Assembly: GCA_947176745.1 (NCBI GenBank)
Contig: CAMWRV010000001.1
Span: forward strand, 44,220-108,219
Reading direction: 5' to 3'
Length of the DNA: 64,000 bases
Source of the DNA: an uncultured Muribaculaceae bacterium
GTDB taxonomy: Bacteria; Bacteroidota; Bacteroidia; Bacteroidales; Muribaculaceae
In this document: positions 10,507 to 62,916 of the stretch, piece by piece
Layout of the letters: the number at the start of each line of letters is the position of its first letter
Numbering within the stretch: position 1 is the stretch's first letter
Notes under the pieces: generated by a model
Database searches by the model: none
Told to the model about the DNA's origin: nothing
The model's input: only the letters and a program-made list of their open reading frames with translations
Program-made: the position numbers and the translations under genes

Positions 10507-10512
10507 ATGCCC

Positions 10513-11482: not shown

Positions 11483-11512
11483 CATCAAGATTACAAAGTT
11501 GAAATTTTAGAT

Positions 11513-12157: not shown

Positions 12158-12170
12158 TTTGCTCGGATAA

Positions 12171-13451
<1,281 letters not shown>

Positions 13452-48101: not shown

Positions 48102-49132
48102 ACCATCGTGCTAAGAAAATAATCTCATATGTCATCACCGTCGCTGTCATAGCAGTAGCCGCCGCATGGGTGTGCGGTAAATTTCTCCGTCTCGGCGATG
48201 TCGAGTTCACCGACAATGCCCAGATATGCCAGCAGATTGTGCCCGTCAACAGCCGTGTGCAGGGGTATATACGCGAAATCCGTTTCAAAGAGTTCGAACC
48301 GGTCCGCAAGGGTGACACTCTTGTAGTGATCGACGATGCCGACATGCGTCTCCGCCTCGCGCAGGCCCGCGCCGACTGGCAGAATGCCGTTGCCGGCAGG
48401 GGAGTGGCCGACCGCAGTGTCGGCGTCGCATCCGCCAATGTCGCTGTCACTGAGGCTTCGATCGCCGAGGCCAAAGTCGTGATGGATCTCGCGGCCACAG
48501 ATTTCGCCCGCTATGAGAAACTGATGGCTCTCGACGCCGTGACGCGTCAGCAGTACGACGCGGCCAAGACCGATTACGAGGCAAAGAAGGCAAGATATGA
48601 GACGCTGGCGCGCCAGCGTTCGGCAACCACTTCGGTGGTGGCCGAGACAAAAGGACGTATCGCTCAGAACGATGCAGGAATCGAGCTTGCCAAGGCTCTC
48701 GTAGAGACTGCCGAACTCAATCTCTCTTATTGTGTCATCACTGCTCCCTGCGACGGTTTTGCGTCGAGAAAGGAGATACAGATCGGTCAGCTTGTGCAGC
48801 CGGGGCAGACTCTTCTCGACATTGTCGATTCCTCCGATATCTGGGTGACTGCAAATTATAAGGAGACTCAGCTCCGTCACATCGCTCCCGGCAGCGAGGT
48901 CGAGATCAAGGTAGATGCCGTGCCCGACGTGACATTCAAGGGCAAGGTGGTATCGCTCTCGAAGGCTACGGGCGCATCGCTGTCAATACTCCCTCAGGAT
49001 AACTCCGCAGGCAATTTCGTGAAAGTGCGCCAGAGGGTTCCGGTCAGAATCGAGTTCTCAAAAGATAATCCTGCGGCCGACATGGAGCGTCTGCGTGCGG
49101 GAATGAATGTCGAGTGCGAGATCAGATATTGA
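48098..49132 (+). CDS. HlyD/EmrA-family membrane fusion protein
   Basis: 344 aa. N-terminal TM, biotinyl-lipoyl-like VQGYIREIRFKEFEPVRKGDTLVVIDD, a coiled coil, then ITAPCDGFASRKEIQIGQLVQPGQ. Confidence 0.9.
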   Translation: MNHRAKKIISYVITVAVIAVAAAWVCGKFLRLGDVEFTDNAQICQQIVPVNSRVQGYIREIRFKEFEPVRKGDTLVVIDDADMRLRLAQARADWQNAVAGRGVADRSVGVASANVAVTEASIAEAKVVMDLAATDFARYEKLMALDAVTRQQYDAAKTDYEAKKARYETLARQRSATTSVVAETKGRIAQNDAGIELAKALVETAELNLSYCVITAPCDGFASRKEIQIGQLVQPGQTLLDIVDSSDIWVTANYKETQLRHIAPGSEVEIKVDAVPDVTFKGKVVSLSKATGASLSILPQDNSAGNFVKVRQRVPVRIEFSKDNPAADMERLRAGMNVECEIRY

Positions 49133-49133
49133 T

Positions 49134-50744
49134 ATGGCTGACTGGCACGCTCCGCAGGGACCGTTCGATGTCCCCGATGTCTATGGCTTCATCCCGCGCC
49201 GCCTGAAGCCCTGGCTTTTCATTCTCTTTGTCCTTATAGTCCAGTTCTCCGGTGGAGTCTATCTCGCCGCAGCCTCCGACATGGTCGGCACGACGGCCCT
49301 GATGCAGGAGGATATACTAATGGCAGGATATGCGTCGCTGGTCGGAATGGCTATAAATTTCGCTGTCATGTTCCGAATCAAGTTCCGCTTCACCACCCGC
49401 ACCCAGCTTCTGGTGTCGGGGGCGGTGCTGATTGCGGCCAATCTCATATGCGCCAACACTGATTCGGTGCCGCTTCTTGTGGCTGTCTGCTTTGTGGCGG
49501 GATGGTTCAGGATGCAGGCCACGTTCGCATGCAACTCCACCATCCAGCTGTGGCTGACACCGGCACGCGACATGGCCATATTTTTCTGCTACGTCTATAT
49601 TGTGGTCGACAGCGTCATACAGCTCAGCGGCATTGCGTCGGTCTACACCGCATTTTTCACACAGTGGGAATACATGCAGTGGATCATGACGGCTCTCCTC
49701 GCGCTGATGATGCTTCTGACCATTGTCTGCCTTCGGCCTGTAAGGGCGCCACTCTTCATCCCGCTGCTCGGAATCGACTGGATCGGCGCCGCACTGTGGG
49801 CTGTATTCATGCTCTGTTTCACATTCGTGTGCGTATACGGCAACTTCTACGACTGGTGGGATTCGGGCGAGATATGCCTCGCCTCGCTGCTTGGACTCGC
49901 GTGTCTGGCCATAAATCTATGGCGGGCCACCTTCCTGCACCATCCCTACATCTCTCTCCCGGCCCTGACAAACCGCAACGTTGTGAAAGCCACGCTCGTC
50001 TATCTTGTCTTCTTCACCCTGCTTGCCACAGAACACGTTTTCGAACATGCCTACGCAGCCTCGATACTCGGTTTTGACGAGACAAACCTTATCGACCTCA
50101 ACTGGTATGTATTCGCAGGCATAATCGCAGGATGCGCGTTCACGTATTACACGTTCGCGCTTCGCAAGTGGCGATACAAGACCATGACTGCTATCGCTTT
50201 CGCTCTCGCCATTGTCTATCTCGCATATTTCTATTTCCTCATAGACTATGGCGTCGAGAAAGAGATGCTTTTCATTCCTCTCTTTTTCAGAGGTGCGGCA
50301 TCGGTCATCATTTCCATTGTATATCTGACATCGGTTGTGCAGAGCGGACTGCCGTTCCAGGTGTTCCCCCAGGCTCTTACCGTCAACGGTTTTACCGGAG
50401 CTGTCATGGGAGCGACTCTCGGTCCGGCACTGATAGGGGAGTTTCTGCGGCGCACCATGGCGTCTAATGCCGCGCTTCTCGGCGCACCGCTGACAGACTT
50501 CAATCCTGCGGCAACCCATATACCGTTTGGAAATCTATACGGCATGGTGTGGCGTCATGCGCTCGCGGTGTCGGTAAAGGAGATCTACGGCTGGCTGTTG
50601 ATCGCGGCCATTGTCTCACTCGTCCTGATCGCCGTGAGCTACAGCAACGTGCGTCCCTGGGCCATATTTCCGAAATGGCGCACAGTGCGCCGGGTTCTTC
50701 GCCGCCTCGTCCGTCAGGAGATTCGCGAGCAGCCCGACATCTGA
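49134..50744 (+). CDS. MFS-type efflux permease (EmrB-like position in the operon; divergent)
   Basis: About 536 aa and about 14 hydrophobic segments. It directly follows the HlyD gene, with the stop and ATG adjacent. Confidence 0.7.
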   Translation: MADWHAPQGPFDVPDVYGFIPRRLKPWLFILFVLIVQFSGGVYLAAASDMVGTTALMQEDILMAGYASLVGMAINFAVMFRIKFRFTTRTQLLVSGAVLIAANLICANTDSVPLLVAVCFVAGWFRMQATFACNSTIQLWLTPARDMAIFFCYVYIVVDSVIQLSGIASVYTAFFTQWEYMQWIMTALLALMMLLTIVCLRPVRAPLFIPLLGIDWIGAALWAVFMLCFTFVCVYGNFYDWWDSGEICLASLLGLACLAINLWRATFLHHPYISLPALTNRNVVKATLVYLVFFTLLATEHVFEHAYAASILGFDETNLIDLNWYVFAGIIAGCAFTYYTFALRKWRYKTMTAIAFALAIVYLAYFYFLIDYGVEKEMLFIPLFFRGAASVIISIVYLTSVVQSGLPFQVFPQALTVNGFTGAVMGATLGPALIGEFLRRTMASNAALLGAPLTDFNPAATHIPFGNLYGMVWRHALAVSVKEIYGWLLIAAIVSLVLIAVSYSNVRPWAIFPKWRTVRRVLRRLVRQEIREQPDI

Positions 50745-50776
50745 TCTCTGCCCCCAATCATCCCCGCTTCAATGCC

Positions 50777-50815
50777 AAAAGGAGTGCAGCCGTCATGGCC
50801 GCACTCCTTTTTTAG
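50777..50815 (+). terminator. Rho-independent terminator of the efflux operon
   Basis: aaaa ggagtgcagcc gtcat ggccgcactcc tttttt. Confidence 0.8.
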
Positions 50816-51125
50816 TTATTTCACAAGAGCGTGGCCGGTTCTGAAATCACCTCTGGTCCCGTATATCCCGACCGCTTTTTGGCCTGCTCCTCAATCGTGT
50901 ACATAAAGTACACTCCATCGTCACAGGTCAAAAATCGTCGCAAGCCATACGACCCTGACGGCAACATTTTTTGTGGGATTGGGTCTTTATCGAAACAAAA
51001 GACGAGCTTCTGTATCAATACGCGGTTTGCAACACGCTTTGCATTGATTGTCGGAGATTCTTATAAAAATATTGTTTACCTAAAATTTTCCATAACCTGT
51101 ATCGTGCTTTGATACATCACCATTC

Positions 51126-51133
51126 TACCTTTG
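51126..51133 (+). promoter_or_regulatory. -7 promoter box TACCTTTG
   Basis: Matches TAnnTTTG, 60 nt upstream of the ATG at 51194. Confidence 0.4.
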
Positions 51134-51193
51134 CATCGAACAATCGCTTTAGCGCTTTGCCAAAGCAAAGAAACATTAAAAACACCAAAAGAT

Positions 51194-51394
51194 ATGGAAC
51201 CTATTACAAGTAATGATTTCCTTAACTCAGTTCTCGAAACTGAGGCATGGAAAGAGGTCTCTCAGAGCGGGAGCCTCAGCATGACGATGATTGAGAAGTT
51301 TGCCGACAAACTTGACTGGGAAGAAGTCAGCGGCAACAGTAATGTCATCTGGACGGTGGAGGGCATCATCATCTTTTGCTTTAACCATCTTTGA
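51194..51394 (+). pseudogene. Probable 5' remnant of a repeat-protein gene, truncated where it runs into the 3' end of the FtsZ-like gene
   Basis: MEPITSNDF...MIEKFADKLDWEEVSGNSNVIWTVEGI shows about 1.3 units of a xIEKFxDKLDWxxxSxNxxxxWT repeat. It then reads into unrelated IIFCFNHL* and overlaps the convergent gene by 14 nt. Confidence 0.35.
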
Positions 51395-52118
51395 TTCCCT
51401 GACATCTCCAGACCTCCTTTTCTGCCAATATTGCGGACAATTTGATTTCATCGCCATTTAGATTTTCGTCACTGTTAACCGACCAAATTACGTTGACTGT
51501 TTCCGGAAGTTCTGATATCAGTTGCTGTATGCTTGCCATTTCACTCATCGCCAATGGAGTTGAACGATTTGGATTATAATAGAGATGTATGGACAAATAA
51601 TCAACACAGCTAAAATCCAATTCGTTAAAAGCAGATCCCAATTTTTTAGCAGCTTCTTTAATATCATTACCTGACGTTGATTTTACCGTGAAGTAATCGG
51701 AATCTCGGAATATGGTACTCAGGTCATTGAAGTCGAATGATATCATACACGAGGTGACAATGGGCTGCAGGAGAGCCTTTATTATTTCCGGATATTCATT
51801 GCGCGACTCACATAACATTATACTGTCGTAACAAGAAGGATCAGCATCCTCTGAAAACCCGAGAGTCAGAACCCCGGCATCGTGAAATGTATTGGCTATT
51901 CTATTTGCCGTTTCTTCTAAGTCAGTAAAGATTATTATTGCAAGTTTGTCCTCGTTGTTAGGAATACATTCATAGGGAGGTCCTGCAATTTCAGCAGAAA
52001 CGCCGTCTAATCCCAGTGAGTTGATCTTATTGATAACTTCTTCGATTCCTGTTCCGACACCTATCACTCTGAATGAGGCCGGCAATATTTGCAGATGATC
52101 TGAGTTATAATATTCCAT
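51381..52118 (-). CDS. Degenerate FtsZ/tubulin-fold protein lacking the GTP-binding signature loops
   Basis: By-eye full-length alignment to FtsZ: [17 protein letters not shown] / [43 protein letters not shown] / [47 protein letters not shown] / [38 protein letters not shown] / TVVIGTSLDPDMNDELRVTVVATG. Start is the ATG at 52118 or the TTG at 52142. It overlaps the upstream gene's stop. Confidence 0.6.
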   Translation of the reverse strand: [245 protein letters not shown]

Positions 52119-53172
52119 TATGATTTGGTGATTTAATAGCAATTATTTGAAGTGCAACTTCGTCTCTTAAATTTTCATCAGTTCCTTTGATAAGTGAGGG
52201 AACTATGTCTCGGAGTATAAACGTTGGCTCAAAGGCAGTGTACAGTCGGTTATCTTCTTCTTCTGTTAAAGGACTTTCTTTACCTGAGTAGACTACCATA
52301 ATAATATCATCGGCATCCTTACATAAATCATCCAATACTGGATGAAATTTTAATAACAGATCTGTTATATAGTCTATGCGGTCAGCTTTTCCATAAACGT
52401 GTGATTCACGCCATGTCTCATATATTTCTCCTGCATTTAAGATCTGATATTCTATCATTTCCAATGGGACATTCGTATGTTTGATGATACTATTTATCAA
52501 ATGCTGACGTTTATCAAGTTTTTTTAGACTCTCCATTCGTGATCTTATACGATAGTCTCGTTTACGCTTACTGCGATTCATACGCATACGACGTTTACTT
52601 AGTTCATGCCATTCTCTCCCGGAAAGATAGATTGACATACAATCAGGCTCATCTTTTAACTGTTGTTTCAAATCTCTTCGTGTTTCAGGTGAGACATAGG
52701 GCAGGATGTTTTTAACTTTAAGTTCTTTTACTTGATAACCGTATTTAGTATATGCGAGATTTCCGATTTCGCAATGCAATGTTTCCTTTGTTTGTCGAGG
52801 AGTAAAACCATAGAACGTCATTCCCCACAGTATAGCACCTGCAAGTTCTGCATCTGTAAATGAGTTACTATCAGGTTTAACAATAGTCTTTCCTGCTATG
52901 TTTTCCCAATAATCTCCTTCGACATTATCGGCAAATAAAGGGAGATTACCAAATAAAAAACACTCTTCTCTTAGAATCATGTCAAACGTCACTTCACCGC
53001 CATCGCCGTTAAATTCAGTATTCCTGATTATATCAAAAGCCTCTTTATAACCATAAAGACATGATACTGAATCCTCGTTTCGATGGGTATTTTTTAAAGC
53101 ATTGACAATTTCGTCAAAACTAAGGGAGTTGAATAATTCTTTTACCGTAATTGCAATTTTATTTTCTGGCAA
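52105..53172 (-). CDS. Hypothetical 355-aa protein, translationally coupled to the FtsZ-like gene
   Basis: Long AT-rich ORF. The only possible start is the TTG at 53172-53170, six codons after an in-frame TGA. It has a central basic segment (KRRMRMNRSKRKRDYRIRSR). No family recognised with confidence. Confidence 0.55.
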   Translation of the reverse strand: MPENKIAITVKELFNSLSFDEIVNALKNTHRNEDSVSCLYGYKEAFDIIRNTEFNGDGGEVTFDMILREECFLFGNLPLFADNVEGDYWENIAGKTIVKPDSNSFTDAELAGAILWGMTFYGFTPRQTKETLHCEIGNLAYTKYGYQVKELKVKNILPYVSPETRRDLKQQLKDEPDCMSIYLSGREWHELSKRRMRMNRSKRKRDYRIRSRMESLKKLDKRQHLINSIIKHTNVPLEMIEYQILNAGEIYETWRESHVYGKADRIDYITDLLLKFHPVLDDLCKDADDIIMVVYSGKESPLTEEEDNRLYTAFEPTFILRDIVPSLIKGTDENLRDEVALQIIAIKSPNHNGIL

Positions 53173-53385
53173 ATTTAGATTTACGGTGTATCAGATTTGG
53201 TGACAACCTGAAAAATATTCACAATATTCAAAAGAAGTCAGATTTGAGCATCGAGAGCACGCTTCCCATGTTTTTCTCCCTCAAACGAGTAGTACAAGGT
53301 AAATAGCGAGCATACCCTACACTGCATACGCTGGAACGCCGTGCATTGGCCGTCTCAAAATCTATTGCTGCAAAGTCGGTCATTC

Positions 53386-54291
53386 TCAGTCGTTTTTATA
53401 CAGTTGGTACATATCAGAAATCCACCCTTTCATAGTTCTGCGTAAATGAGTCGGTTCAATCACCTCGACCATTGAGCCGACTTGAAGCAGCTTCATTACA
53501 AAATCGTAAGTCGGAGCCAGAAAAAGCTCAAAATCCGCATACTCCCCGACATCCTCAATCAAACGCTGACTATGATGAAGAGGCAACGATTTAAGATAAT
53601 GCTTGTGGTCTTCATTAGCCCTTATAATGATTTTCTCCGGTTTCTCTCCTGTTCCTACTACTATACCGTATGCTGTGGAAAAGTATTCCTCTGCATTAAA
53701 ATCCTTTGGGAGTTTGAATGTTTCTGATGTTACTTCAACATTCTCCATGCGGTCAAGACCGTAAAGACGAATATCACCATAACGGATGTTATGAGCCAGT
53801 ACATACCAGCGATTCTCAAAGAGTCTCACACAATATGGCTCAATTGGAAAGGTATAGCCATGCGATTTCTTGAAAGGACGATAAGTTATAGTTACGATGC
53901 GATTATCTTTCATTGCCTCCAGGATGGTAGTGAGATGATCGCGTCCGGAAGGTATCTCTTCAACCAATATACGATCCTTTAATGACAGATTCTCCCCGAT
54001 GACATTGCCAACCGCATAAGAGTCAAGCATCCACTTTTTGAGTTTGTCCTCCTCAATATCCTGAGGATTGGCAATGAAATATAAGTAGCCACCGGTCTTC
54101 TGACAATCTATCATGATGCTGAACTGGTCATAAATAGCCTCTCTCCACCGGTTGAATGTAGCACGGTGGAGCGGACGGCAATCGCTCAGTTCCTTGTGGC
54201 GTTGCCACTTATCGGAAAGATCCTTATGAGAAATCTTTCCGGCACGGCGGATCGTTTCAATCAGCCATGTGTATTTCGGCAGTTGGTTCAT
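53386..54291 (-). CDS. WYL-domain transcriptional regulator (wHTH-WYL-WCX architecture, BrxR/CapW-like)
   Basis: 301 aa. N-terminal wHTH (YTWLIETIRRAGKISHKDLSDKW). WYL core ITYRPFKKSHGYTFPIEPYCVRLFENRWYVLAHNIRYGDIRLYGLDRM. C-terminal extension ...VEVIEPTHLRRTM. Confidence 0.85.
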   Translation of the reverse strand: MNQLPKYTWLIETIRRAGKISHKDLSDKWQRHKELSDCRPLHRATFNRWREAIYDQFSIMIDCQKTGGYLYFIANPQDIEEDKLKKWMLDSYAVGNVIGENLSLKDRILVEEIPSGRDHLTTILEAMKDNRIVTITYRPFKKSHGYTFPIEPYCVRLFENRWYVLAHNIRYGDIRLYGLDRMENVEVTSETFKLPKDFNAEEYFSTAYGIVVGTGEKPEKIIIRANEDHKHYLKSLPLHHSQRLIEDVGEYADFELFLAPTYDFVMKLLQVGSMVEVIEPTHLRRTMKGWISDMYQLYKND

Positions 54292-55139
54292 GTTAATGAT
54301 TTAATTATGTCGTCAACTAAAGCTTCAAAATGAGTTTTAAAATACTCACTTCTTTGTCCGCGAGTAGATGGATGAATTGTACGGGCTGCATATTTCACCC
54401 CGGGGATATTAATTCGATCAAGAAACAATCCTTCCCTTATCTGATGGAAAGAGTCATCAGACAGACCAAATTTTTCTTTTATGTCGTTGTCTGCATAAAA
54501 TCCTGTTAGAAAGATTATGATATCCGGTTTAAGTATTTTCACTTCTTCCCTAACAACATTGAAATACCTACATTCTATTTCGCGAATTTCTGGTGTGGGC
54601 TTTCCACAACATTGACCAAAGTCTTTGCCACCCCGGCTAATCTTTGATATATTATTCCATACGACTCCTATATTATAATTAACAAGACGATATGCCAACT
54701 GCTGAATCAACTGATCCTGACGACGGGTAAATATAGACTTTCTAATTCCACTTTCCTCATAGCAGTAGCCATGATAAATGTCTCCCAATCCATAGTACTC
54801 TTCTTCTCCGTCAATATGTCTACCCATAATTTCGGTAACAATATCATCGGAATTACGGAGATTGAAATTATAACTGCCAAATGGATATTTACTGCGATTA
54901 TACTTGTCGTTCCAGTTATTCGTTTCTCTACCGAAAACCATCACACGCAGATCGGCGTTCTCATACGATCCGTCATCGTTGAGTTCAATAAGCAGCGGTA
55001 ACGCAGGTTTGATAGCCTCAGGATCATCGAACAGAGGTTTTACAGCCGAATAAAGTCCCGGAATTTTGGAAGCGTAGAGATTAACTAATTTGTCGTTTAG
55101 TGACTTCTCTTCAATTGGGATGTATTCTATATCTTTCAT
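54288..55139 (-). CDS. Divergent uracil-DNA-glycosylase-superfamily protein (family-4-like motif layout)
   Basis: 283 aa. LRVMVFGRETNNW sits at the motif-A position (GExxG-like). VVWNNISKISRGG...GKPTPEIREIECRYF...LKPDIIIFLTG resembles the N-x-x-K...P-x-x-E-x-x-C...P-x-I-I-x-LG segment. ARTIHPSTRG sits at motif B (HPS). It overlaps the WYL gene by ATGA. Confidence 0.55.
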   Translation of the reverse strand: MKDIEYIPIEEKSLNDKLVNLYASKIPGLYSAVKPLFDDPEAIKPALPLLIELNDDGSYENADLRVMVFGRETNNWNDKYNRSKYPFGSYNFNLRNSDDIVTEIMGRHIDGEEEYYGLGDIYHGYCYEESGIRKSIFTRRQDQLIQQLAYRLVNYNIGVVWNNISKISRGGKDFGQCCGKPTPEIREIECRYFNVVREEVKILKPDIIIFLTGFYADNDIKEKFGLSDDSFHQIREGLFLDRINIPGVKYAARTIHPSTRGQRSEYFKTHFEALVDDIIKSLT

Positions 55140-55164
55140 GATAAAGGGGATTTGTTATCGCTTA

Positions 55165-55172
55165 CAAAGTTA
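55165..55172 (-). promoter_or_regulatory. -7 promoter box TAACTTTG for the UDG-like/WYL pair
   Basis: The reverse complement of caaagtta lies 26 nt upstream of the ATG at 55139. Confidence 0.45.
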
Positions 55173-55242
55173 ATATTTTTCTGTATCATTTTACGTTACA
55201 CTTTCTGTTGATTTCTAACTTCAGACATCCAATTCCTCAATT

Positions 55243-57129
55243 TCATCTAATGTGAGGTCTCTCCGTTAGTTCTCGCCAGTTTTTAATCATGTTGACGAGG
55301 CAGCTTGCCACAAAGTATTCGGGTGTGGTCGGAGGAAATCCCATCCATGGATCATGCCGGCGTAAATCGCGGACTTTGGTCGCAAGGCATGTTGTCCATG
55401 CTTCTCTCGTGATAAAAAAATCCTCATGATGAAGAATGGAATCGTCAGATACATACGAATCATGAACAGCAAGGAATCCACCTTTATCCTCATAGGGATT
55501 ATGGTTCACTTCCCTTGACAATTCTTTTAGTTTTACAAAAGTCAATTCGCACTCCGCCAGCTGATGGTCATAATACTCTCGTTCATTCTTTCTGATAAAT
55601 TTTCGGACTTTGTCCCAGTTTGTGTATCGGAAATAGTATTCCAGCCTCATATCTATGTCAGTAAGATCATCATCATTTATCTGGTTACAATGGATACCTC
55701 TGTTGAGCCGGAGTAATTCATCAATCTCAGATCTATTCACTAAGGAATCAGGCCGGGATACAACGCTCAAAGCTGAGTGCTGTGGAAGATATATCGATTT
55801 AATGGGATTGCAGGAGCAGTCAAGGTGGGTGAGGTTAGGACAGTGGCGTAAATCCAATTTCGTTAGTTCGTTGTCTCTACATACTACTCCTGTAAGAAAA
55901 TCTTTCCGATAAGAGCCCGGTGTAAGGTCGAGATTGGTAAGGCACTGTCCGACGATTGATAATTTCCTGAGTCCGGTACAATCGCCTAAATAAATAAAAT
56001 GCAGTTGACGGGGATAGCGACTGAAATCAAAGCCTTCGATAATCTTTTCCCATAATGATTCAATGTTGATTGTATATGTTCCCGGCTGAGAGTAAGAGTG
56101 ATGGCATGTAACGCTTCCCGTCTTGTCCGAGTCTCCATATTTATCGCAAGTTCCGTCTCCCCAGTCAACAATCAGATGACAATAAGGAGCAATTTCTAAT
56201 GAGAATTCGCAAACAGAATTGTCAGATTTTATCTCAACTTCCAATATCATCCAATCATGTTTCATAATTCCGCGCCGATGAAGCATACACTGTTGACGCA
56301 TCTTTTTTATAAAATGATCGTTGTCGTTGATGTATGGACTTTCAAGGTACTTTATATATAAATCGAATTGTTTGATTTTGCTTTCATAGCGACCATATAG
56401 GTCGCCCAGAGACCAATAGACTTCTGGTTCAACACAACAATACATATCGTAATATCTCTCAAGATATTCTCTGGCAAGCTCATGATTCTGCTTTGTGCCG
56501 TGTCCGTAATAATACATTAGTCCGAGGTATTTCGCTGTATGATCATCTTTCAAATTTTTTAAAGTATTGAAGGCCGACTCATATTCTTCCGATTCATAGT
56601 AATATGTTCCCAACGTGAATGTATGCCGAAAATCTCCTTCGGATGCTTTCTTTATATAATACTCACGCACCGCAGGATTGTGAAGCAATTTCGAAAGTCC
56701 ACACCCTATAGTTGCACTACACCCAACAATTATTTCTACAAATTCACGATCGGTCCAGTCAAGCCTGCGTTCAGCGATATCTTTCCCGAGCTCGCATGTT
56801 AGTATTTTGGCCAATGCGTTATTGCAGTTCTCATATCCGACATTCTTCCACTCAGTTAAGCGGTCAATGGAATATTGAAATTCCTCTTTACTCACATTAC
56901 TTAAGAAAAATGTCAGATTCATAACATTCATCGAGATAAACGAAGTGCCAAACTCGTCTGTCAGCCTATTGGCAATCCGAAGATACTCCTCGATGCAATC
57001 AAGTCCTTCGATTAGCTGCGGACGAATCGAACCATCCGAATTCCATATTTTTTCTCTGAGTGGCCTTAATATTCCTGATGCCTTTTTGACTAAGTCCCGG
57101 GCTCTCTTTTCATTATCTTCTCTTTTCAT
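55243..57129 (-). CDS. Large signal-less multidomain protein: unknown N-domain, Sel1-like repeats, PKD-like domain, leucine-rich repeats, unknown C-domain
   Basis: 628 aa. AKYLGLMYYYGHGTKQNHELAREYLER is a Sel1 repeat. VDWGDGTCDKYGDSDKTGSVTCHHSYSQPGTYTINI is a PKD signature. LRKLSIVGQCLTNLDL...NELTKLDLRHCPNLTHLDCSCNPIKSIYL are LRRs. The N-terminus MKREDNEKRARDL has no signal peptide. Confidence 0.65.
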   Translation of the reverse strand: MKREDNEKRARDLVKKASGILRPLREKIWNSDGSIRPQLIEGLDCIEEYLRIANRLTDEFGTSFISMNVMNLTFFLSNVSKEEFQYSIDRLTEWKNVGYENCNNALAKILTCELGKDIAERRLDWTDREFVEIIVGCSATIGCGLSKLLHNPAVREYYIKKASEGDFRHTFTLGTYYYESEEYESAFNTLKNLKDDHTAKYLGLMYYYGHGTKQNHELAREYLERYYDMYCCVEPEVYWSLGDLYGRYESKIKQFDLYIKYLESPYINDNDHFIKKMRQQCMLHRRGIMKHDWMILEVEIKSDNSVCEFSLEIAPYCHLIVDWGDGTCDKYGDSDKTGSVTCHHSYSQPGTYTINIESLWEKIIEGFDFSRYPRQLHFIYLGDCTGLRKLSIVGQCLTNLDLTPGSYRKDFLTGVVCRDNELTKLDLRHCPNLTHLDCSCNPIKSIYLPQHSALSVVSRPDSLVNRSEIDELLRLNRGIHCNQINDDDLTDIDMRLEYYFRYTNWDKVRKFIRKNEREYYDHQLAECELTFVKLKELSREVNHNPYEDKGGFLAVHDSYVSDDSILHHEDFFITREAWTTCLATKVRDLRRHDPWMGFPPTTPEYFVASCLVNMIKNWRELTERPHIR

Positions 57130-57131
57130 TG

Positions 57132-57482
57132 CTAATATGACTCAAAAATATCTTCTTCATCGGCGCGTTCTTCCGTTGAAATATTCAAATAACTATTGCA
57201 ACACACTTCATCCTGCCATAGAATAATGTCGCTTACGGTTAGAGTTCCATCTGGAGTCTGTATAATGAAATAATATTCGTACTCTGTAAAATCTAACTGA
57301 ATATATAATTGCAGGTAATCTTCATGTTCTGTCAATTCGATTCCCATAATAGCAAGCCACATTTCCTGAGCCTTAATGAAGTCGGCAAACGAAGTATATT
57401 CCTCCGCTACTGCCGAAAAATATGCCTGCCGCTTACGCATCATTTCAATGCGCTCTTTAGTGGACATAGTTGTTAAATCCAT
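57132..57482 (-). CDS. Small acidic hypothetical protein immediately upstream of the Sel1/PKD/LRR gene (2-nt gap)
   Basis: ORF 57132-57509. I prefer the ATG at 57482 (MDLTTMSTKER...) because a TAATTTTG -7 box at 57507-57514 overlaps the upstream TTG. Confidence 0.5.
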   Translation of the reverse strand: MDLTTMSTKERIEMMRKRQAYFSAVAEEYTSFADFIKAQEMWLAIMGIELTEHEDYLQLYIQLDFTEYEYYFIIQTPDGTLTVSDIILWQDEVCCNSYLNISTEERADEEDIFESY

Positions 57483-57520
57483 ACGAAACTTTTTAAATTT
57501 TGGAAGCAAAATTATTTCAG

Positions 57521-57590
57521 AGCTGACGCATTTTGCGGTACACCATAAAAATTATCAAAAATAATAGCTGACGCATAAAATGATACACCA
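57521..57590. promoter_or_regulatory. Two 25-bp imperfect direct repeats (45-bp period) in the divergent promoter region of the island
   Basis: agctgacgcattttgcggtacacca (57521-57545) and agctgacgcataaaatgatacacca (57566-57590). -7 boxes lie at 57507-57514 (minus) and 57597-57604 (plus, TACCTTTG). Confidence 0.6.
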
Positions 57591-57621
57591 AAGCATTACC
57601 TTTGCGATAAAAATAGAAAAC

Positions 57622-58215
57622 ATGAAAATCCTTCACCTTTCCGACACTCACAACTGCCATCATCGACTCCGGGATTTACCCGAAGCGGACGTGGTCGTTC
57701 ATTCCGGCGATTTCTGTATGGTCGGAACCGAACAGGAAGCCCTTGATTTCCTTAACTGGTTCTGTGACTTACCATACAAACACAAGATCTTTATCTGTGG
57801 CAACCACGATGAATGCCTTTATGGAGCGAACATAGAAGGTCTGGACTCAAATGTTTACTTTCTATGCAATTCGGGCGTTGAGATTGAAGGTATTAAATTC
57901 TATGGCATACCTATGTTTTTGAGCGACTGTGTTACAGAACGTCAAAACCAAAACTATGCTAAAATTCCGGATGATACTGATGTGTTGATAACACATTCTC
58001 CGGCATACGGTATTCTTGACTTTGATGATAATATCCACTATGGTTCCGAAGAACTACTTGAAAAAATATCTACGCTCAATCTTAAAGCACATCTGTTTGG
58101 ACACATTCATGCTCAGCGTGGATTGGAAATTATAGACAACGCATTATTTTCTAATGGAGCCATTCTTGACGCTGACTATATAGCGACCTCATCTCCCAAT
58201 GTGATTACAATATGA
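57622..58215 (+). CDS. Small calcineurin-like metallophosphoesterase
   Basis: All MPE motifs are present: LSDTH, HSGDF, GNHDE, ITHSP and GHIH. I place the start at MKILHLSDTH. Confidence 0.85.
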   Translation: MKILHLSDTHNCHHRLRDLPEADVVVHSGDFCMVGTEQEALDFLNWFCDLPYKHKIFICGNHDECLYGANIEGLDSNVYFLCNSGVEIEGIKFYGIPMFLSDCVTERQNQNYAKIPDDTDVLITHSPAYGILDFDDNIHYGSEELLEKISTLNLKAHLFGHIHAQRGLEIIDNALFSNGAILDADYIATSSPNVITI

Positions 58216-58247
58216 TCTTTGGGAACTTTTGGGAACAAATAATCTTA

Positions 58248-58301
58248 TAATACAAAAGTAAGCATACAGATAATTAATACAAAAGTAAGCATACAGATAA
58301 T
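58248..58301. repeat. Perfect 27-bp tandem duplication at the right edge of the island
   Basis: taatacaaaagtaagcatacagataat x 2, read directly. Confidence 0.95.
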
Positions 58302-58468
58302 GCTATCATAGTCGATAGCGTAATCCTCACCAATGTGATTGTTGAGGGTATTAGATTTATGATTTTGTTATGGTACATTATTGCTTGTTTTCCGAGAAGT
58401 TACAGTAAACATAAACAACCATAACTAAATCATAATCTCAAAGTTCCCGGTTTTATAATTGTAGATAT

Positions 58469-58511
58469 AACAAAATATGGTGCAACTCGTTGAGTTACAC
58501 CATATTTTGTT
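58469..58511 (-). terminator. Rho-independent terminator of dnaK
   Basis: aacaaaatatggtgcaactc gtt gagttacaccatattttgtt, a stem of about 20 bp with one mismatch. It is A/T-rich at both ends and lies 18 nt downstream of the dnaK stop. Confidence 0.75.
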
Positions 58512-58528
58512 ATTGATTATTATGTGTC

Positions 58529-60421
58529 TTACTTCACTTCCTCGAAGTCGACGTCAGTCACGTCTTTTTCGTTGTCGGGCGCTGCTCCGGGCTGAGGGCC
58601 GGCCGCGCCGGCGCCTGCGGCGTTCTGGGCGTTGTAGATGTCCTGTGCTGCCGCCTGGAACGCGTCGGTCACCGCTTTGACCGCAGAGTCAACATCCTCT
58701 ACAAGCTGGTTCTTGTGAACCTCTTTCAGTTTTGCAAGTGCTGATTCGACATTGGCTTTCTTGTCGGCCGGAATCTTGTCGCCGAGTTCATTGAGCTGCT
58801 TCTCGGTCTGGAAGATCACGGAGTCGGCGTGATTGAGTTTGTCGGCACGCTCCTTGGCCTTGCGGTCGGCTTCCTCGTTGGCCTTCGCCTCGTCGCGCAT
58901 GCGCTGGATCTCGCTGTCGCTAAGACCGCTCGAAGCTTCGATGCGGATTGACTGCTCCTTGCCTGTGGCCTTGTCTTTGGCTGTCACGTTGAGGATACCG
59001 TTGGCGTCAACCTCGAATGTAACCTCGATCTGCGGAACGCCTCGCGGTGCGGGTGCGATGCCGCCGAGGTTGAACTCGCCGAGCAGTTTGTCGTCGGCTG
59101 CCATCGGACGCTCGCCCTGAAGCACACGGATCGTAACCTCGGGCTGGTTGTCGGCCGCTGTCGAGAATGTCTCGCTCTTTCGTGTAGGAATTGTAGTGTT
59201 GGCGTCGATAAGCTTGGTCATCACGCCGCCCATTGTCTCGATACCGATCGACAGGGGCACCACGTCAAGAAGAAGCACATCCTTCACGTCTCCGCTGAGC
59301 ACGCCGCCCTGGATTGCCGCGCCGATTGCCACCACCTCGTCGGGATTGACACCCTTGTTGGGCTCCTTGCCGAAGATCTCTTTCACTTTGGCCTGGATGG
59401 CAGGAATACGGGTCGAACCGCCGACAAGAATCACCTCGTCGATCTCGCTTGCCGACATTCCGGCGTCCTTAAGCGCGTTGATACAGGGCTGAGCCACAGC
59501 GTCGATGAGTTTCGACGCCAGAGCCTCGAATTTCGCGCGGGTAAGCACTTTCTCAAGGTGTTTGGGGCCGGTGGCGGTAGCGGTGATGTAGGGGAGTGCT
59601 ATGTCGGTCGAGGTTGAGCTTGAAAGCTCGATCTTGGCTTTCTCAGCGGCATCCTTGAGTCGCTGCATGGCCATGGGATCCTGACGGAGATCCACACCTT
59701 CGTCTGCCTTGAACTCGTCGGCGAGCCAGTCGATGATCACATTGTCGAAGTCATCGCCGCCGAGGTGGGTGTCGCCGTTGGTCGATTTCACCTCAAACAC
59801 GCCGTCGCCCAGCTCAAGGATCGAAATATCGAATGTGCCGCCTCCGAGGTCGAACACCGCGATCTTCTGCTCCTTGGTCGATTTGTCAAGACCGTATGCA
59901 AGCGCGGCGGCAGTAGGCTCGTTGATGATACGCATCACCTTCAGACCAGCGATCTCTCCGGCATCCTTGGTGGCCTGACGCTGTGAGTCGTCGAAGTATG
60001 CCGGCACTGTGATGATAGCCTCGGTCACGGGCTGGCCCAGATAATCCTCGGCTGTCTTCTTCATTTTCTGGAGTATCATGGCCGATATCTCCTGCGGCGT
60101 GTAGTCGCGGCCGTCGATGTCGACCTTGGGCATGTCGTTCTGGCATACCACCTTGTAGGGAACTCGTTTGATCTCGTCGGTCACCTGATCGCACTTCTCG
60201 CCCATGAATCTCTTGATCGAGTAGATGGTGCGCGTCGGGTTGGTGACAGACTGTCTTTTGGCGGGGTCGCCTACTTTTCTCTCGCCGCCGTCTACAAACG
60301 CGACAACCGACGGAGTCGTGTTACGTCCTTCATTGTTGGGGATCACAACAGGATCCTTGCCTTCAAGCACAGCCACACATGAGTTGGTCGTTCCCAGGTC
60401 AATGCCAATAATTTTTCCCAT
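58529..60421 (-). CDS. dnaK: Molecular chaperone DnaK (Hsp70)
   Basis: 630 aa. [25 protein letters not shown] and [14 protein letters not shown]. Confidence 0.98.
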
Positions 60422-60831
60422 GATTCTATATTTCTTTAAGTGTTAATAATTCTATCGTTTCCGTCACGTTGCTGACGGGGCAGGATGCGGGCGGTCATGT
60501 CCGCATGCCCTGCATTTGACTTATTAACAAATAATGTGCTAATTGGGTTGAAACGTTTCGGCATCCACGGCTGAAATTCCTTAAAATTGTGGCTCTCTGA
60601 TTCTTGTGAATATCGTCAGCAAATCGACACATGTGTCACTGGCGTGACAAAAATGACATTTTATCAATTAAATCTGACCAAAATTCGGCATTGTCACATA
60701 TTATTATTAATTTTGTAGCCTGATTTTAGATGAACATGCGGGCGGCACTCCCTTCCCGTGTTCGGGTCCGGTCGGTGATCCGTGATTTTATCAGGATTCC
60801 TGACGTGCCAATTATAACGATTTCACAAATT

Positions 60832-62022
60832 ATGAAGCCCTTACAACAGAAACTTTCGGCTTACGATGCGCCCCAGCGCGCCAAGGCGGCCGGTGTTTAT
60901 CCTTATTTCCGAGCCATTGAGAGTGAGCAGGACACTGAAGTCATCATGAATGGCAGGAAAGTGCTCATGTTCGGCTCTAACAGCTACATGGGTCTGACAA
61001 ATCACCCGAAAGTGATCGAAGCGGCCGTGGAGGCTACTAAAAAATATGGAACAGGACTCGCCGGTTCTCCTTTCCTCAACGGCACGCTCACTATCCATAA
61101 GGATCTTGAAGCCCGCCTCGCCGACTATGTCGGCAAGGAAGACGCCATGCTCTATTCCACAGGGTTCGGCGTCAATCTCGGAGTTGTCTCCATTCTGACA
61201 GGCCGTGAAGACTACGTCATTCTCGACGAGCAGGATCATGCCTCGATCATCGAGGGACGCCGTCTCTCTTTCTCCAACTATCTGAAATACCGTCATAACG
61301 ACATGGCGTCGCTCGAGACTCAGCTCCGCAAGTGCGATCCCGACAAAGTGAAGCTCATCGTAACCGACGGTGTCTTCTCCATGGAAGGCGATGTGGCCGA
61401 TCTTCCCGAGATAACGCGTCTTGCCAAGCAATACAACGCGGCTGTGATGGTCGACGAGGCCCACGGACTCGGTGTGTTCGGCGAGGGTGGCCGCGGCACC
61501 TGCTTCCACTTCGGAGTGCAGGACGACGTAGATCTCATAATGGGAACATTCTCGAAGTCGCTCGCTTCGCTCGGTGGCTTCCTCGCTGCCGACAAGGTCA
61601 TAACCAACTATCTGCGCCACCATTCGAGATCTTATATATTCACCGCGTCGATCACGCCCGCATCCACCGCTGCAGTCAACGCCGCGCTCGATATCATTCT
61701 GGCCGAGCCCGAGCGTCAGGAGCATCTGTGGGAGATCACCAGATTTGCCCTTGAAAACTTCAAGGCCATGGGATGCGAGATTGGACATACGTCCACACCC
61801 ATCATTCCCCTCTTCATCCGCGACGACTACAAGACATTCCAGGTTACACACGACCTTCTTGAGGAGGGAGTGTTTGTAAATCCGGTGGTCACTCCGGCTG
61901 TAGGTCCTCACGACACACTGATCCGCTATTCTCTGATGGCCACCCACACCAAAGAACAGGTGGAGCGCTCGCTCGAAGCCATAGAAAAGGTGTTCAGAAA
62001 GTACGGTCTGCTCAACCGCTGA
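60832..62022 (+). CDS. spt: Alpha-oxoamine synthase, serine palmitoyltransferase-type (Bacteroidetes sphingolipid synthesis)
   Basis: 396 aa starting from MKPLQQKLSAYDAPQRAKAAGVYPYFRAIES. PLP-lysine motif GTFSKSLASLGGF. It closely resembles my recollection of Bacteroides SPT rather than BioF. Confidence 0.8.
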   Translation: MKPLQQKLSAYDAPQRAKAAGVYPYFRAIESEQDTEVIMNGRKVLMFGSNSYMGLTNHPKVIEAAVEATKKYGTGLAGSPFLNGTLTIHKDLEARLADYVGKEDAMLYSTGFGVNLGVVSILTGREDYVILDEQDHASIIEGRRLSFSNYLKYRHNDMASLETQLRKCDPDKVKLIVTDGVFSMEGDVADLPEITRLAKQYNAAVMVDEAHGLGVFGEGGRGTCFHFGVQDDVDLIMGTFSKSLASLGGFLAADKVITNYLRHHSRSYIFTASITPASTAAVNAALDIILAEPERQEHLWEITRFALENFKAMGCEIGHTSTPIIPLFIRDDYKTFQVTHDLLEEGVFVNPVVTPAVGPHDTLIRYSLMATHTKEQVERSLEAIEKVFRKYGLLNR

Positions 62023-62047
62023 CGACTTCACGCAAATTATTCACAGA

Positions 62048-62080
62048 CGGAAATCCATCATGGATTTCCGCCTGTTTTTG
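62048..62080 (+). terminator. Rho-independent terminator of spt
   Basis: cggaaatcca tca tggatttccg followed by cctgttttt. Confidence 0.8.
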
Positions 62081-62254
62081 CGTTATGCGGAAGCGTCCGC
62101 ATTCGGTTAGAGGCAGTGTACGGCCGACAGGTAATTTTTTTTCAAGAAAATTTGTCTGCTACTTGCACATATAGTAAAAGTGAATTAAATTCGCGTTGTT
62201 TTTCGGGACGCATATGTGCGCCGCATATTAACTCAGGATTACTTAAGATAAAAA

Positions 62255-62803
62255 ATGGTATATAGGTTTAAACTCGTAAGCGATGAGGTGAGCAACTTCA
62301 GCCGCGAAATCGAAATCGATTCGGAAAATACATTTCTGCAATTGCGCAACGCGATTCTGGAAAGTGTGAACTTTACCAAGGATGAACTCGATTCTTTCTT
62401 CCTATGTAACGACGACTGGGAGCGAGAGGAGGAGATCACTCTTGAAGACATGGGCACTTCTGCCTCCGATCAGGATCTCTGGCTCATGGAGAGCACGCCT
62501 CTCAGCGAGCTTATTGAAGACGAAGGCCAGAAGCTGTCGTTTGTATTCGACTATTTCACTGAGCGCTCATTCTTTCTTGAGCTTAAGGAGATGATTCCCT
62601 CGCGCAGTCTTGTGGAACCAATCTGCACGATCAAGCGAGGCAAGGCTCCGTCGCAGACCGTCGACATGGCTGAATTCGACAAGGCCATCGACGCCAAGGC
62701 GTCGCAGTCGGTGATTGACGACATAGATATCGAGCCAATCGAGGGCGGTGCTTTCAACGAAGAGGATCTTGAAGACGGATTCGATATTCTCGACGACATG
62801 TAA
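62255..62803 (+). CDS. pRiA4b ORF-3-like (PF07929-type) domain protein with an acidic C-terminus
   Basis: MVYRFKLVSDEVSNFSREIEIDSENTFLQLRNAILESVNFTKDELDSFFL has the N-terminal pattern of that family. The call is from memory. Confidence 0.5.
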   Translation: MVYRFKLVSDEVSNFSREIEIDSENTFLQLRNAILESVNFTKDELDSFFLCNDDWEREEEITLEDMGTSASDQDLWLMESTPLSELIEDEGQKLSFVFDYFTERSFFLELKEMIPSRSLVEPICTIKRGKAPSQTVDMAEFDKAIDAKASQSVIDDIDIEPIEGGAFNEEDLEDGFDILDDM

Positions 62804-62810
62804 GCCGTCA

Positions 62811-62880
62811 CACAGATGACCGGATACAATTATCCCCGACCGTTTTTGCGGCCGGGGATAATTGTATCCGGTCATCTGTG
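62811..62880. terminator. 28-bp perfect inverted repeat (14-nt spacer) between convergent genes; bidirectional terminator or other structured element
   Basis: cacagatgaccggatacaattatccccg (62811-62838) and cggggataattgtatccggtcatctgtg (62853-62880). Confidence 0.7.
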
Positions 62881-62916
62881 ACACTTTAAGGTGCCAATAT
62901 CTTGAATATGCATGCG

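Follow-up and report, generated by a model that had tools for sequence, protein, structure and literature searches.

The DNA described here is a stretch of 64,000 nucleotides (the window) from an uncultured Muribaculaceae bacterium (GenBank assembly GCA_947176745.1, contig CAMWRV010000001.1, positions 44,220 to 108,219 of the forward strand). Between a tolC-hlyD-MFS efflux operon (MFS, major facilitator superfamily) and dnaK it carries an AT-rich block of seven genes (50816-58467), among them genes for a WYL-WCX regulator and a metallophosphoesterase (MPE). From 48529 to 64000 (15.5 kb overlap compared) the window is 100% identical to contig JAIDVX010000055 of GCA_029059465.1, a mouse-gut Muribaculaceae genome. 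On balance, and with some reservation, we consider the block beside dnaK to be a real, recently exchanged accessory island, a reduced copy of a modular cluster of gut Bacteroidales whose cassettes stand under one promoter-palindrome signal and whose role is likely to lie in defence or another nucleic-acid conflict. Here we present the features of the island and of its relatives, together with the competing explanations.

Organization of the island

The genes, gene remnants and promoters of the island are listed below (aa, amino acids; L followed by a number denotes a comparison locus).

51095..51133, plus strand: hybrid promoter of the truncated 171-aa gene; palindrome 51095-51119 (16.4 bits), 6 nt, TACCTTTG box 51126-51133
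51194..51371, plus strand: 5' remnant (~60-70 codons) of the 171-aa gene; 85% aa identity to residues 1-72 of L137:18649-19164
51381..52118, minus strand: g253 (245 aa), minimised FtsZ-fold protein; AlphaFold2 (AF2) model with pLDDT 88, top 50 Foldseek matches in the PDB all FtsZ
52105..53172, minus strand: g355 (355 aa), DUF6557 protein, optional cassette; Pfam DUF6557 E 1.5e-7
53315..53383, minus strand: remnant of an RNase T/DEDDh exonuclease gene, first 23 codons; tblastn 87% identity to residues 1-23 of the L094 RNase_T
53386..54291, minus strand: WYL-WCX regulator (301 aa); Pfam WYL E 1.6e-15 and WCX E 5.6e-6, PADLOC WYL E 5.6e-30
54288..55139, minus strand: g283 (283 aa), protein with the fold of the uracil-DNA glycosylase (UDG) superfamily, translationally coupled to WYL; AF2 pLDDT 92 and Foldseek
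55165..55203, minus strand: g283-WYL hybrid promoter; palindrome 55179-55203 (19.5 bits), 6 nt, TAACTTTG box 55165-55172
55243..57129, minus strand: g628 (628 aa), cytoplasmic repeat protein, partner of g283; Pfam LRR_4 and Sel1
57132..57482, minus strand: g125 (116 aa), small acidic protein of the cluster backbone; homologues in 29/44 complete loci, mostly without g628
57507..57604, no strand: divergent MPE/g125 control region; palindromes 57521-57545 (34.7 bits) and 57566-57590 (22.7 bits)
57622..58215, plus strand: MPE (197 aa), calcineurin-type; Pfam Metallophos E 9e-14, PADLOC PDC-S10 E 3.3e-75

A preliminary description, made from the letters of the window, had drawn six minus-strand genes as three tight pairs beside a divergent metallophosphoesterase gene. 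This layout is confirmed: g125 and g628 are separated by 2 nt (57129 and 57132), g283 and WYL overlap by 4 nt (54288-54291), and g355 and g253 overlap by 14 nt if g253 starts at ATG 52118, as in public gene calls. The Pfam match of MPE bears out the assignment of the divergent gene. The true starts of g125 and MPE are likely ATG 57482 and ATG 57622, respectively, which give the lengths listed above.

Two fragments of further genes remain in the island. Nucleotide homology to L129 (90.7%) extends over 51081-51371, that is the promoter and the 5' part of the 171-aa gene, and ends at 51371; the intact gene runs on past 51368 in metagenome contigs. In full clusters elsewhere the 171-aa gene lies at the far end, and in the window its fragment is joined tail-to-tail to the 3' end of g253, an arrangement that marks a deletion. 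The RNase_T remnant directly follows WYL, the same place that the RNase_T gene occupies in full clusters. These two gene fossils indicate that the island is a deletion-reduced allele of a larger cluster. A possible 29-aa trace of a 227-aa tubulin-like gene was also noted at 53229-53315.

Composition and borders

In a windowed profile the G+C content falls from about 0.55 (0.54-0.57) to 0.34-0.45 between ~50.8 and ~58.5 kb; the island as a whole has 0.394, the remaining window 0.526. The G+C content of third codon positions is 0.26-0.46 in the seven island genes and 0.63-0.72 in tolC, hlyD, MFS, dnaK and kbl, and the island is the strongest tetranucleotide outlier of the window. The sharp drop in composition reported in the preliminary description is thereby borne out, and its placement of the block between the terminators of two core transcription units agrees with the hairpins found at 50777-50811 and 58467-58513. 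The features of the borders are the following.

50777..50814, plus strand: left border, terminator hairpin and T-run of the tolC-hlyD-MFS efflux operon; inverted repeat 50777-50791 / 50797-50811, 93% complementary
50876..50969, no strand: short left-edge stretch, heavily repeated in mouse-gut metagenomes; assembler word depth 750-1650 against 10-60 alongside in runs X2, X6 and X1
58248..58301, no strand: perfect 27-bp tandem duplication (TAATACAAAAGTAAGCATACAGATAAT x2) between MPE and the dnaK terminator; single copy in related strains
58457..58513, minus strand: right border; homology to the restriction-modification (R-M) allele L084 restarts at 58457 (blastn), dnaK terminator hairpin 58467-58513, 95% complementary

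Neither the island nor the window contains a tRNA or tmRNA gene, no integrase-like open reading frame (ORF) occurs within the 64 kb, no direct repeats or classic att repeats flank the island, and an Rfam scan of the whole window delivered no RNA family. The earlier failure to find an integrase, tRNA or flanking direct repeats thus holds for searches of the window.

The left-edge stretch (50876-50969, ~70-95 bp) occurs at 20-40x the depth of neighbouring sequence in three mouse-gut metagenomes, and contigs end at 50969 and at ~50876-50898. It has no match in Pfam, Rfam, plasmids or IMG/VR and no second copy in the window or in the 181 loci compared; it may be a scar or fragment of a repeated or mobile element. 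At the other end, a deletion of 27/28 nt at 58248 found in 4/4 metagenome runs corresponds to a single copy of the 27-bp unit. A second low-G+C stretch of the window lies at ~9000-12200 (0.40-0.45 in 2-kb windows); it holds a 423-aa ORF and an ORF-free kilobase (10418-11479) and matches no Rfam family.

Alternative alleles beside dnaK

Contigs that encode an identical DnaK protein carry different cargo next to it. One type has the arrangement of the window (L081). A second (L082, L083 and L085) has MPE, REase-ARP, a 164-aa gene, WYL, a HAD_SAK_2 protein, a g253 homologue, PLDc_2 and GmrSD, with the L085 contig ending after the REase-ARP and 164-aa genes. The third (L084) has a type III R-M system with an AAA_15/21 ATPase and is without MPE. 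Among mouse-gut metagenome contigs, one allele next to dnaK reads MPE-g125-g628-g283-WYL-g253, with g355 absent, and a second, likewise next to dnaK, has the junction 54291->57397, with g628-g283 absent. Four alleles stand beside an identical DnaK.

The core flanks of the contigs with alternative alleles are only 88-89% identical to the window, whereas the WYL gene shares 97.8% nucleotide identity with L083 (core 89%) and g253 is 93% identical. The alignments lose similarity either at the MPE start codon (57622) or at the dnaK terminator (58457). Between lineages, synonymous divergence (dS) amounts to 0.078 for WYL, 0.10 for MPE and 0.13 for g253, compared with 0.66 for the core neighbour kbl. 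All seven island ORFs are intact and under purifying selection, with ratios of nonsynonymous to synonymous divergence (dN/dS) of 0.05-0.18; the exception is g253, with 0.54 in the closest comparison. The island represents one allele at a replacement hotspot that lies downstream of dnaK in a mouse-gut Muribaculaceae lineage; it is strain-variable and has been exchanged recently, in mosaic fashion. The earlier proposal of a horizontally acquired island is supported in this sense, by the allelic cargo and by the low dS of the island genes (0.08-0.13 against 0.66).

Comparison with close genomes at the junction had been suggested as a check. It yielded other cargo beside an identical DnaK, while no empty site can be defined across species. 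The efflux operon is conserved in 80 further species of Muribaculaceae, but dnaK is never downstream of it and no island gene is found there; the junction between MFS and dnaK is therefore comparable only among very close relatives. The best cross-species match of the MFS protein is 83%, and in a relative whose MFS is 82% identical, a hybrid two-component system and a polysaccharide utilization locus lie downstream. An exact-protein look-up of MFS returned only the window's own genome. The DnaK protein itself (window 58529-60421) is 100% identical to those of L082-L085 although dS is 0.16 for dnaK and 0.66 for kbl, which points to extreme purifying selection together with codon constraint on dnaK.

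Related clusters in gut Bacteroidales

A scan with the g253 alignment delivered 80 metagenome loci and one IMG/VR locus, across which gene order was followed with a tblastn panel. The recurrent order begins with MPE (minus strand) and a minus-strand group of REase-ARP-like 324, 235, 233 and DprA-like genes, and continues with RtcB, 138, 70, g125, the pair of g628 and g283, WYL and RNase_T. After RNase_T follow 131, tubulin-like 227 or DUF6140 genes, then either g355 or a HAD-SAK protein, g253, bpMoxR, vWA-like 444, YgjP-like and PLDc_2, and beyond these GmrSD and, further on, the 171-aa gene, both on the minus strand. The gene order of the whole array is kept across genera.

Complete loci, here the 44 with at least 6 kb on both sides, differ in the modules that they hold. 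WYL is present in 43/44, and in 43/44 it occurs together with g253. PLD (37/44), RtcB (35/44), RNase_T (34/44), g125 (29/44) and MoxR-vWA-YgjP (29/44) are also frequent, and MPE, which forms the outer end of the cluster and often lies just beyond the flank, was found in 24/44. g355 and the tubulin-like gene each occur in 12/44, and g628 with g283 in 5/44. The WYL protein of the window shares 77-82% aa identity with those of human-gut loci. bpMoxR-vWA lies directly downstream of g253 homologues in 42 loci (bpMoxR by Pfam, the vWA match being weak); it is absent from the window.

Several loci show which genes keep company. In L087 the homologues of g628 (55%) and g283 (68%) are adjacent, with no WYL, g125 or MPE nearby. 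L088-L093 have MPE followed by an 82-aa gene, g125 (70%), g628 (74%), a 248-aa gene, g283 (60%), WYL (59%), g253 (67%) and PLDc_2; the cluster there lies elsewhere in the chromosome, flanked by a GNAT gene and Lys_export. L185, at the same site as L088, has MPE followed by RtcB, g125, a 190-aa gene, g283, WYL (4-nt overlap) and a g253-like gene, and L182 has a minimal set of a 140-aa gene, WYL, a 256-aa gene and g283. The link between g283 and WYL thus recurs in L088, L185 and L182, and g628 adjoins g283 homologues in L087, L152 and L153, with the 248-aa gene between them in L088.

Judged by gene order, the genes are best described as one modular cluster and not as three autonomous pairs, with g125 as part of its backbone. 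The preliminary description had taken the three gene pairs as independent, and this did not stand: g125 occurs mostly without g628, the recurrent links are g628-g283 and g283-WYL, and one palindrome is shared.

Several neighbourhoods of the cluster carry additional genes. Beyond MPE in L137 (709-3614), a second, distinct WYL-WCX regulator (358 aa) lies divergent from a pair of RtcB (516 aa) and RF-1-domain (PrfH-like) genes, which is an RNA/ribosome-repair module adjoining the cluster. Beside PLDc_2 in L176 (12201-20065), a 1423-aa Sacsin/HATPase-like and SF1 helicase protein and a 1198-aa RecD-like helicase are encoded, probably another defence-type module. The strains of L089-L093 differ beyond Lys_export (197/104-aa genes, 203/280-aa genes, or 631-aa and TerD genes), which indicates a second variable spot nearby.

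The palindrome and promoter signal

Two copies of a 25-bp element lie in the region between MPE and g125, a direct repeat of which 0.12 would be expected by chance. The repeat has no verbatim copy in other loci, and its family was revealed only by a position weight matrix (PWM) built from related sites. The PWM consensus is TGCTGTATCGCAAAATGCGACACCT, in which inverted half-sites flank an A-rich centre. With a threshold of at least 16 bits the PWM has four hits in the window, all inside the island.

The sites stand in a fixed relation to a TAnnTTTG box. Toward g125, the palindrome at 57521-57545 is followed after 6 nt by the box at 57507-57514 (minus strand). The palindrome at 57566-57590 is 6 nt from the box at 57597-57604 (plus strand) toward MPE and 2 nt from that at 57556-57563 (minus strand). 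The palindromes at 55179-55203 and 51095-51119 pair with the boxes at 55165-55172 (minus strand) and 51126-51133 (plus strand), respectively, and a further box is at 53170-53177 (minus strand). In the whole window TAnnTTTG occurs 40 times, with 23.4 expected. A box before each pair had been described previously. The boxes are present, but that assigned to g355 (TAAATTTG, 53170-53177) overlaps the predicted TTG start (53172), after which 64 codons follow without ATG, and cannot serve the g355 start as drawn. As g355 has no palindrome, g355-g253 may be transcribed by read-through from the g283-WYL promoter.

In the cluster loci, 289 PWM hits at the same threshold reduce to 269 distinct sites in 1.37 Mb, compared with one in the 1.21 Mb of 80 control loci from the same family. 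The majority (218 of the 269 distinct sites) lie no more than 150 bp upstream of the start of a cluster gene; by downstream gene they are distributed over '233' (48), bpMoxR (46), WYL (43), RtcB (37), HAD-SAK (14), the 171-aa gene (12), MPE (11), g125 (10) and g283 (9), and a cluster locus has up to ~6 of them. TAnnTTTG starts exactly 6 nt after the site in 244/282 oriented hits, while a box within 0-12 nt is found at 0.85% of random positions. The 6-nt spacer and the flanks of the sites are unconserved, so that the 6-nt register reflects constraint and not shared ancestry alone. In the L083 allele the motif precedes WYL and the REase-ARP operon, and L182 and L185 have it as well, whereas the R-M allele L084 is without it.

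The common palindrome-box promoter places MPE, g125-g628, g283-WYL and the truncated 171-aa gene in one regulon, and the presence of the same signal at each transcription unit explains how cassettes can be exchanged under retained common control. The regulon is probably run by the WYL protein: as the only regulator that travels with the motif, it is taken as the putative dimeric binder of the palindrome. Contigs of mouse-gut metatranscriptomes cover the genes from WYL to g125, with the g628/g283 and g125/g628 junctions among them, which is consistent with transcription.

Proteins of the island

MPE matches the PADLOC model PDC-S10 (PDLC04908) almost end to end, with residues 11-210 on model positions 6-215 of 223, and its closest solved structure is MPPED2 (E 2e-19). 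Whereas the PDC-S10 candidate consists of one gene, the island gene belongs to a multi-gene cluster, in which it forms one arm of a divergent promoter under operator control. No published phenotype of PDC-S10 was found in the literature searched. The WYL protein is predicted to be the master regulator of the island. Its N-terminus has no helix-turn-helix (HTH) match in Pfam, and an HTH_11-like pattern at residues ~5-75 was recognized by eye only; the closest solved structure is PafBC (E 6e-5). Apart from PDC-S10 and generic WYL models, no defence-system model of PADLOC matches the island proteins, in agreement with the preliminary description, in which no pair corresponded to a named system. 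The PADLOC-DB used was version 2.0.0 (2023), and later systems such as Brig1 are outside its coverage. PADLOC, PHROGs and NCBIfam contain nothing for g253, g355, g283, g628 and g125.

g283 has no match in Pfam either, and phmmer finds nothing for it in the PDB. The top 50 Foldseek matches of its AF2 model in the PDB all belong to the UDG superfamily (SMUG1, UdgX, family 4 and TDG; best E 2e-5, probability 1.0, TM 0.28-0.50), and a search of the PDB with the family profile gave 24 weak matches (E about 1), all family-4 or UdgX. In an alignment of 40 family members FGRExNNW and RTIHPS are invariant or near-invariant: F69-G70-R71 are invariant, E72 is near-invariant and followed by N74..W76, and R253-T254-x-H256-P257 is followed by S258, which is conserved in most members. 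These motifs lie at the expected places of UDG motif A (GQDPY or GEAPG, for example; placed by a reading of the family alignment) and motif B (HPS...; placed by the HMMER alignment), with sequences unlike those of all characterised families. The earlier label of a DNA-glycosylase-like enzyme therefore holds at the level of the fold.

g628 consists of Sel1/tetratricopeptide repeats (TPR), a PKD-like beta domain (a sequence reading), an internalin-type leucine-rich repeat (LRR) region and a conserved C-terminal domain. Its matches in the PDB are the LRR of internalin-J (E 1.6e-7) and SEL1L-like proteins, and no signal peptide is apparent by eye. g125 has no family match or recognisable domain in Pfam, PADLOC, NCBIfam or PHROG.

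g253 resembles FtsZ in fold (Foldseek E 3e-14, TMq 0.61-0.75), and its family profile, run against 1.8 billion proteins, reaches some of the size of FtsZ with E 1e-11 to 1e-15. Against TIGR00065 it scores 19 bits, with a cut-off of 295 bits. The invariant D129/D132 correspond to D209/D212 in the T7 loop of E. coli FtsZ (hhalign). The tubulin signature GGGTG[ST]G (T4) and the glycine-rich T1 are lacking; the family alignment reads GVGxGIE and (F/I)xDxExxAN there, and ~45 residues of the N-terminal domain are missing in our own comparison with E. coli FtsZ. g253 is probably an FtsZ-derived, GTP-blind protein, as judged from the model and the alignment. Homologues of g355 (41-51% identity) are the immediate upstream neighbours of g253 homologues in 22 loci, and a sequence search of the PDB with g355 gave nothing useful. 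L083 has a HAD-SAK protein in place of g355; homology between the two was considered and rejected (BLASTP E 0.09, one short motif).

A second gene of the tubulin superfamily, coding for 227 aa, was observed at L137 8892-9575 and also in L118, L130, L133, L149, L152, L153 and others (Tubulin/FtsZ GTPase domain, Pfam E 8e-9). It lies just upstream of the g253 homologue in 12/44 loci, and the two proteins could form a split GTPase/T7-loop pair.

Relation to known systems

The closest regulatory parallels are found among WYL proteins. The WYL repressor BrxR binds to inverted repeats, of which a defence island has two sites (PMC9122601), and CapW releases double-stranded DNA upon binding single-stranded DNA (ssDNA) (PMC11662680). 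As in these cases, the WYL and WCX protein described here is encoded inside a variable island with palindromes before its own and other operons, BrxR having its two sites in the pEFER island; the WYL domain, the ligand-sensing part of such regulators, is common to all of them. The island protein, however, has no significant match to the solved structures of BrxR or CapW, its best match in the PDB being PafBC (E 6e-5). Homologues of BrxR are reported mainly from Proteobacteria, whereas the island protein is from Bacteroidota. Many cassettes are tagged with the operator here, and its rigid 6-nt register to the -7 box is more like that of an integral promoter element.

PafBC acts by sigma adaptation on hybrid promoters without a -35 element (PMC8635444; PMC11804915). 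It shares with the island protein the WYL family, and the target promoters, predicted ones in the case of the island, consist in both of a canonical downstream element and a regulator-specific upstream element at a fixed spacing that replaces the -35/-33 element; the ssDNA trigger is that of PafBC. In contrast to PafBC, a heterodimer of two HTH-WYL-WCX chains that serves a chromosomal damage regulon in Actinobacteria, the island codes for a single 301-aa protein with a palindromic site and a -7 box of the Bacteroides sigma-ABfr type, and activation is one of two possibilities.

UDG-fold and other glycosylases are known as anti-phage effectors (PMC11078745; bioRxiv 2025.10.29.685425). Like the defence glycosylases Brig1 (PMC11078745) and the integron Dag/UDG-like proteins (bioRxiv 2025.10.29.685425), g283 has the fold of the UDG superfamily and lies in a defence-type island. 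It differs from them in having no detectable similarity to characterised UDG families, in its large insertions (TM 0.3-0.5) and in its coupling to a WYL regulator and, often, to a TPR/PKD/LRR protein of 628 aa.

Rare FtsZ/tubulin-superfamily effectors have been described in ternary conflict systems with MoxR-vWA (Kaur et al. 2020, PMC7159879). g253 with its FtsZ fold resembles these, its homologues standing directly upstream of bpMoxR-vWA in the 42 loci mentioned above; the window copy is without MoxR-vWA. Compared with FtsZ and tubulin, g253 has only 245 aa, with the T1 and T4 GTP loops replaced and the T7-like D..D invariant. A literature search found no description of the cluster, the palindrome, the g253 family or the g283 family. 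We class the island with the WYL-controlled defence or conflict islands, as one with several uncharacterised components and an unusually rigid promoter architecture.

Proposed mode of action

In the working model, the WYL-WCX protein, with its putative N-terminal winged HTH, would bind the palindrome as a dimer and gate all promoters, including that of its own g283-WYL operon and the divergent MPE/g125 promoters. The WYL domain would respond to a nucleic-acid cue such as ssDNA, as in CapW, BrxR and PafBC. Two modes may be envisaged: repression by occupation of the -33 region, lifted once ssDNA binds to the WYL domain, or PafBC-like activation of hybrid promoters without the upstream sigma element (-35). 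The rigid 6-nt spacing favours a role integral to the promoter.

Among the predicted effectors, g283 and g628 may act in recognition of, and base excision on, foreign or modified DNA, and the translational coupling of g283 to WYL suggests that g283 could itself make the signal, as ssDNA or apurinic/apyrimidinic (AP) sites. The PDC-S10 phosphoesterase is a candidate effector. In the g355-g253 cassette, a GTP-blind FtsZ homologue with an intact T7 face may cap or monitor FtsZ filaments and thereby interfere with division or keep it under surveillance.

A more far-reaching version, which we regard as speculative and rather unlikely to hold in all its parts, would combine these steps into a plug-and-play immune or stress regulon. 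The WYL protein would read the palindrome-N6-TAnnTTTG promoter, which is without a -33 element, by ssDNA-triggered sigma adaptation; g283 would make the ssDNA/AP signal from the non-canonical DNA of an invader; and g253 would cap or monitor host FtsZ and so arrest division.

Competing explanations

Defence against phages or another nucleic-acid conflict is the most likely role by analogy with the company the genes keep, which comprises type III R-M as allelic cargo, REase-ARP, GmrSD, PLD and a phosphoesterase that matches PDC-S10. The preliminary description had spoken of a mix as seen in defence islands. The company is indeed defence-like, while the function in defence stays an inference. Several observations weigh against it. 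The anti-phage role is drawn from analogy, and PDC-S10 is itself a candidate defence system. RtcB, RNase T, HAD-SAK, DprA-like and YgjP/WLM-like proteins are repair-type enzymes, which a damage-response regulon would fit equally. In the window copy about half of the modules have been lost and two pseudogene fragments remain, so that some of its function may have disappeared. Binding of the palindrome by WYL is predicted only, an alternative sigma factor or other regulator could read the motif, and L087 has two palindrome sites with no WYL gene within 7 kb. g355 is without an operator, and both its promoter and its start codon are uncertain. The loci that served to seed the PWM are also those in which its hits were counted, a circularity that the control set and the window-wide scan mitigate but do not remove; the metatranscriptome evidence consists of contigs that may include carried-over DNA; and the contigs of the other alleles break off within the island, before they reach the left end of the hotspot.

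A regulon for the response to nucleic-acid damage (SOS-like) or for repair, carried as an accessory block, is possible, and we give it a modest chance. The WYL protein would then sense ssDNA or damaged RNA and induce repair enzymes, namely the UDG-like glycosylase and the phosphoesterase, to which full clusters add RtcB ligase, RNase T, HAD-SAK, DprA-like and WLM/YgjP protease. The WYL regulators PafBC and SiwR control DNA-damage regulons (PMC8635444, PMC11804915, PMC10693628), PafBC is the closest solved relative of the island protein, the partner modules include RtcB, RNase_T, HAD_SAK_2, DNA_processg_A and YgjP-like proteins, and in L137 a module of a second WYL, RtcB and RF-1 lies next door. 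A repair regulon is harder to reconcile with a block that is strain-variable, AT-rich, recently exchanged and allelic with type III R-M, with GmrSD and REase-ARP flanking it or lying within it, the REase-ARP operon having the same operator; the phosphoesterase matches a defence candidate of PADLOC, and the window copy is without every RNA-repair module. The damage-response and defence readings are not mutually exclusive.

The genes may instead be the decaying cargo of an integrative mobile element that has lost its integrase, partly relics, which serve or served the element in the exclusion of competitors or in anti-defence; we consider this improbable. A tyrosine integrase (Arm-DNA-bind_5 and Phage_int_SAM_5) does lie 1.8 kb beyond MPE in L176 (2497-3702), a contig classed as viral by IMG/VR, and in two further species of Muribaculaceae (L022, 12128-13021; L056, 4421-5617) the MFS operon is directly followed by integrases of the same family; as evidence of an integration site the latter are weak, the L022 integrase being followed by ordinary FecR and TonB-dependent-receptor (SusC-like) genes. 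The two pseudogene remnants and the repeated 70-95-bp stretch at the left border would also suit such an element. The window, however, has no integrase, att-like repeat or tRNA, the clusters of L088 and L185 have no integrase within the 7-9 kb of flank examined, and the seven ORFs are intact and under purifying selection, with intact operators. Quite unlikely, finally, is the accumulation side by side of three autonomous two-gene systems (g125 with g628, g283 with WYL, g355 with g253) and a solitary phosphoesterase. The tight coupling within the pairs (2-nt gap, 4-nt and 14-nt overlaps) and the recurrence of g283-WYL and g355-g253 elsewhere speak for it, but g125 homologues are mostly without g628 (29 against 5 of 44), the partner of g628 in L087 is g283 instead of g125, the order of the array is kept across genera and the promoters share one palindrome. 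We prefer the reading as a reduced, exchangeable copy of one modular cluster, probably of defence or conflict.

Significance

Most known defence islands under WYL control come from Proteobacteria, and how defence is regulated in gut Bacteroidota has been little charted. If the preferred reading is true, the palindrome-N6-TAnnTTTG rule would find members of a whole regulon in Bacteroides and Muribaculaceae genomes and would flag new candidate effectors, among them the pseudo-FtsZ, the DUF6557 proteins, a divergent UDG-fold family and its TPR/PKD/LRR partner. It would offer a test case for WYL control that is built into the unusual promoter of Bacteroidota; should the plug-and-play version hold, this would be the first sigma adaptation outside Actinobacteria and on the housekeeping sigma factor of Bacteroidota. 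The island would further be an example of the shuffling of defence or repair cassettes between gut species at recombinase-free hotspots, with a practical bearing on the phage susceptibility of abundant gut commensals.

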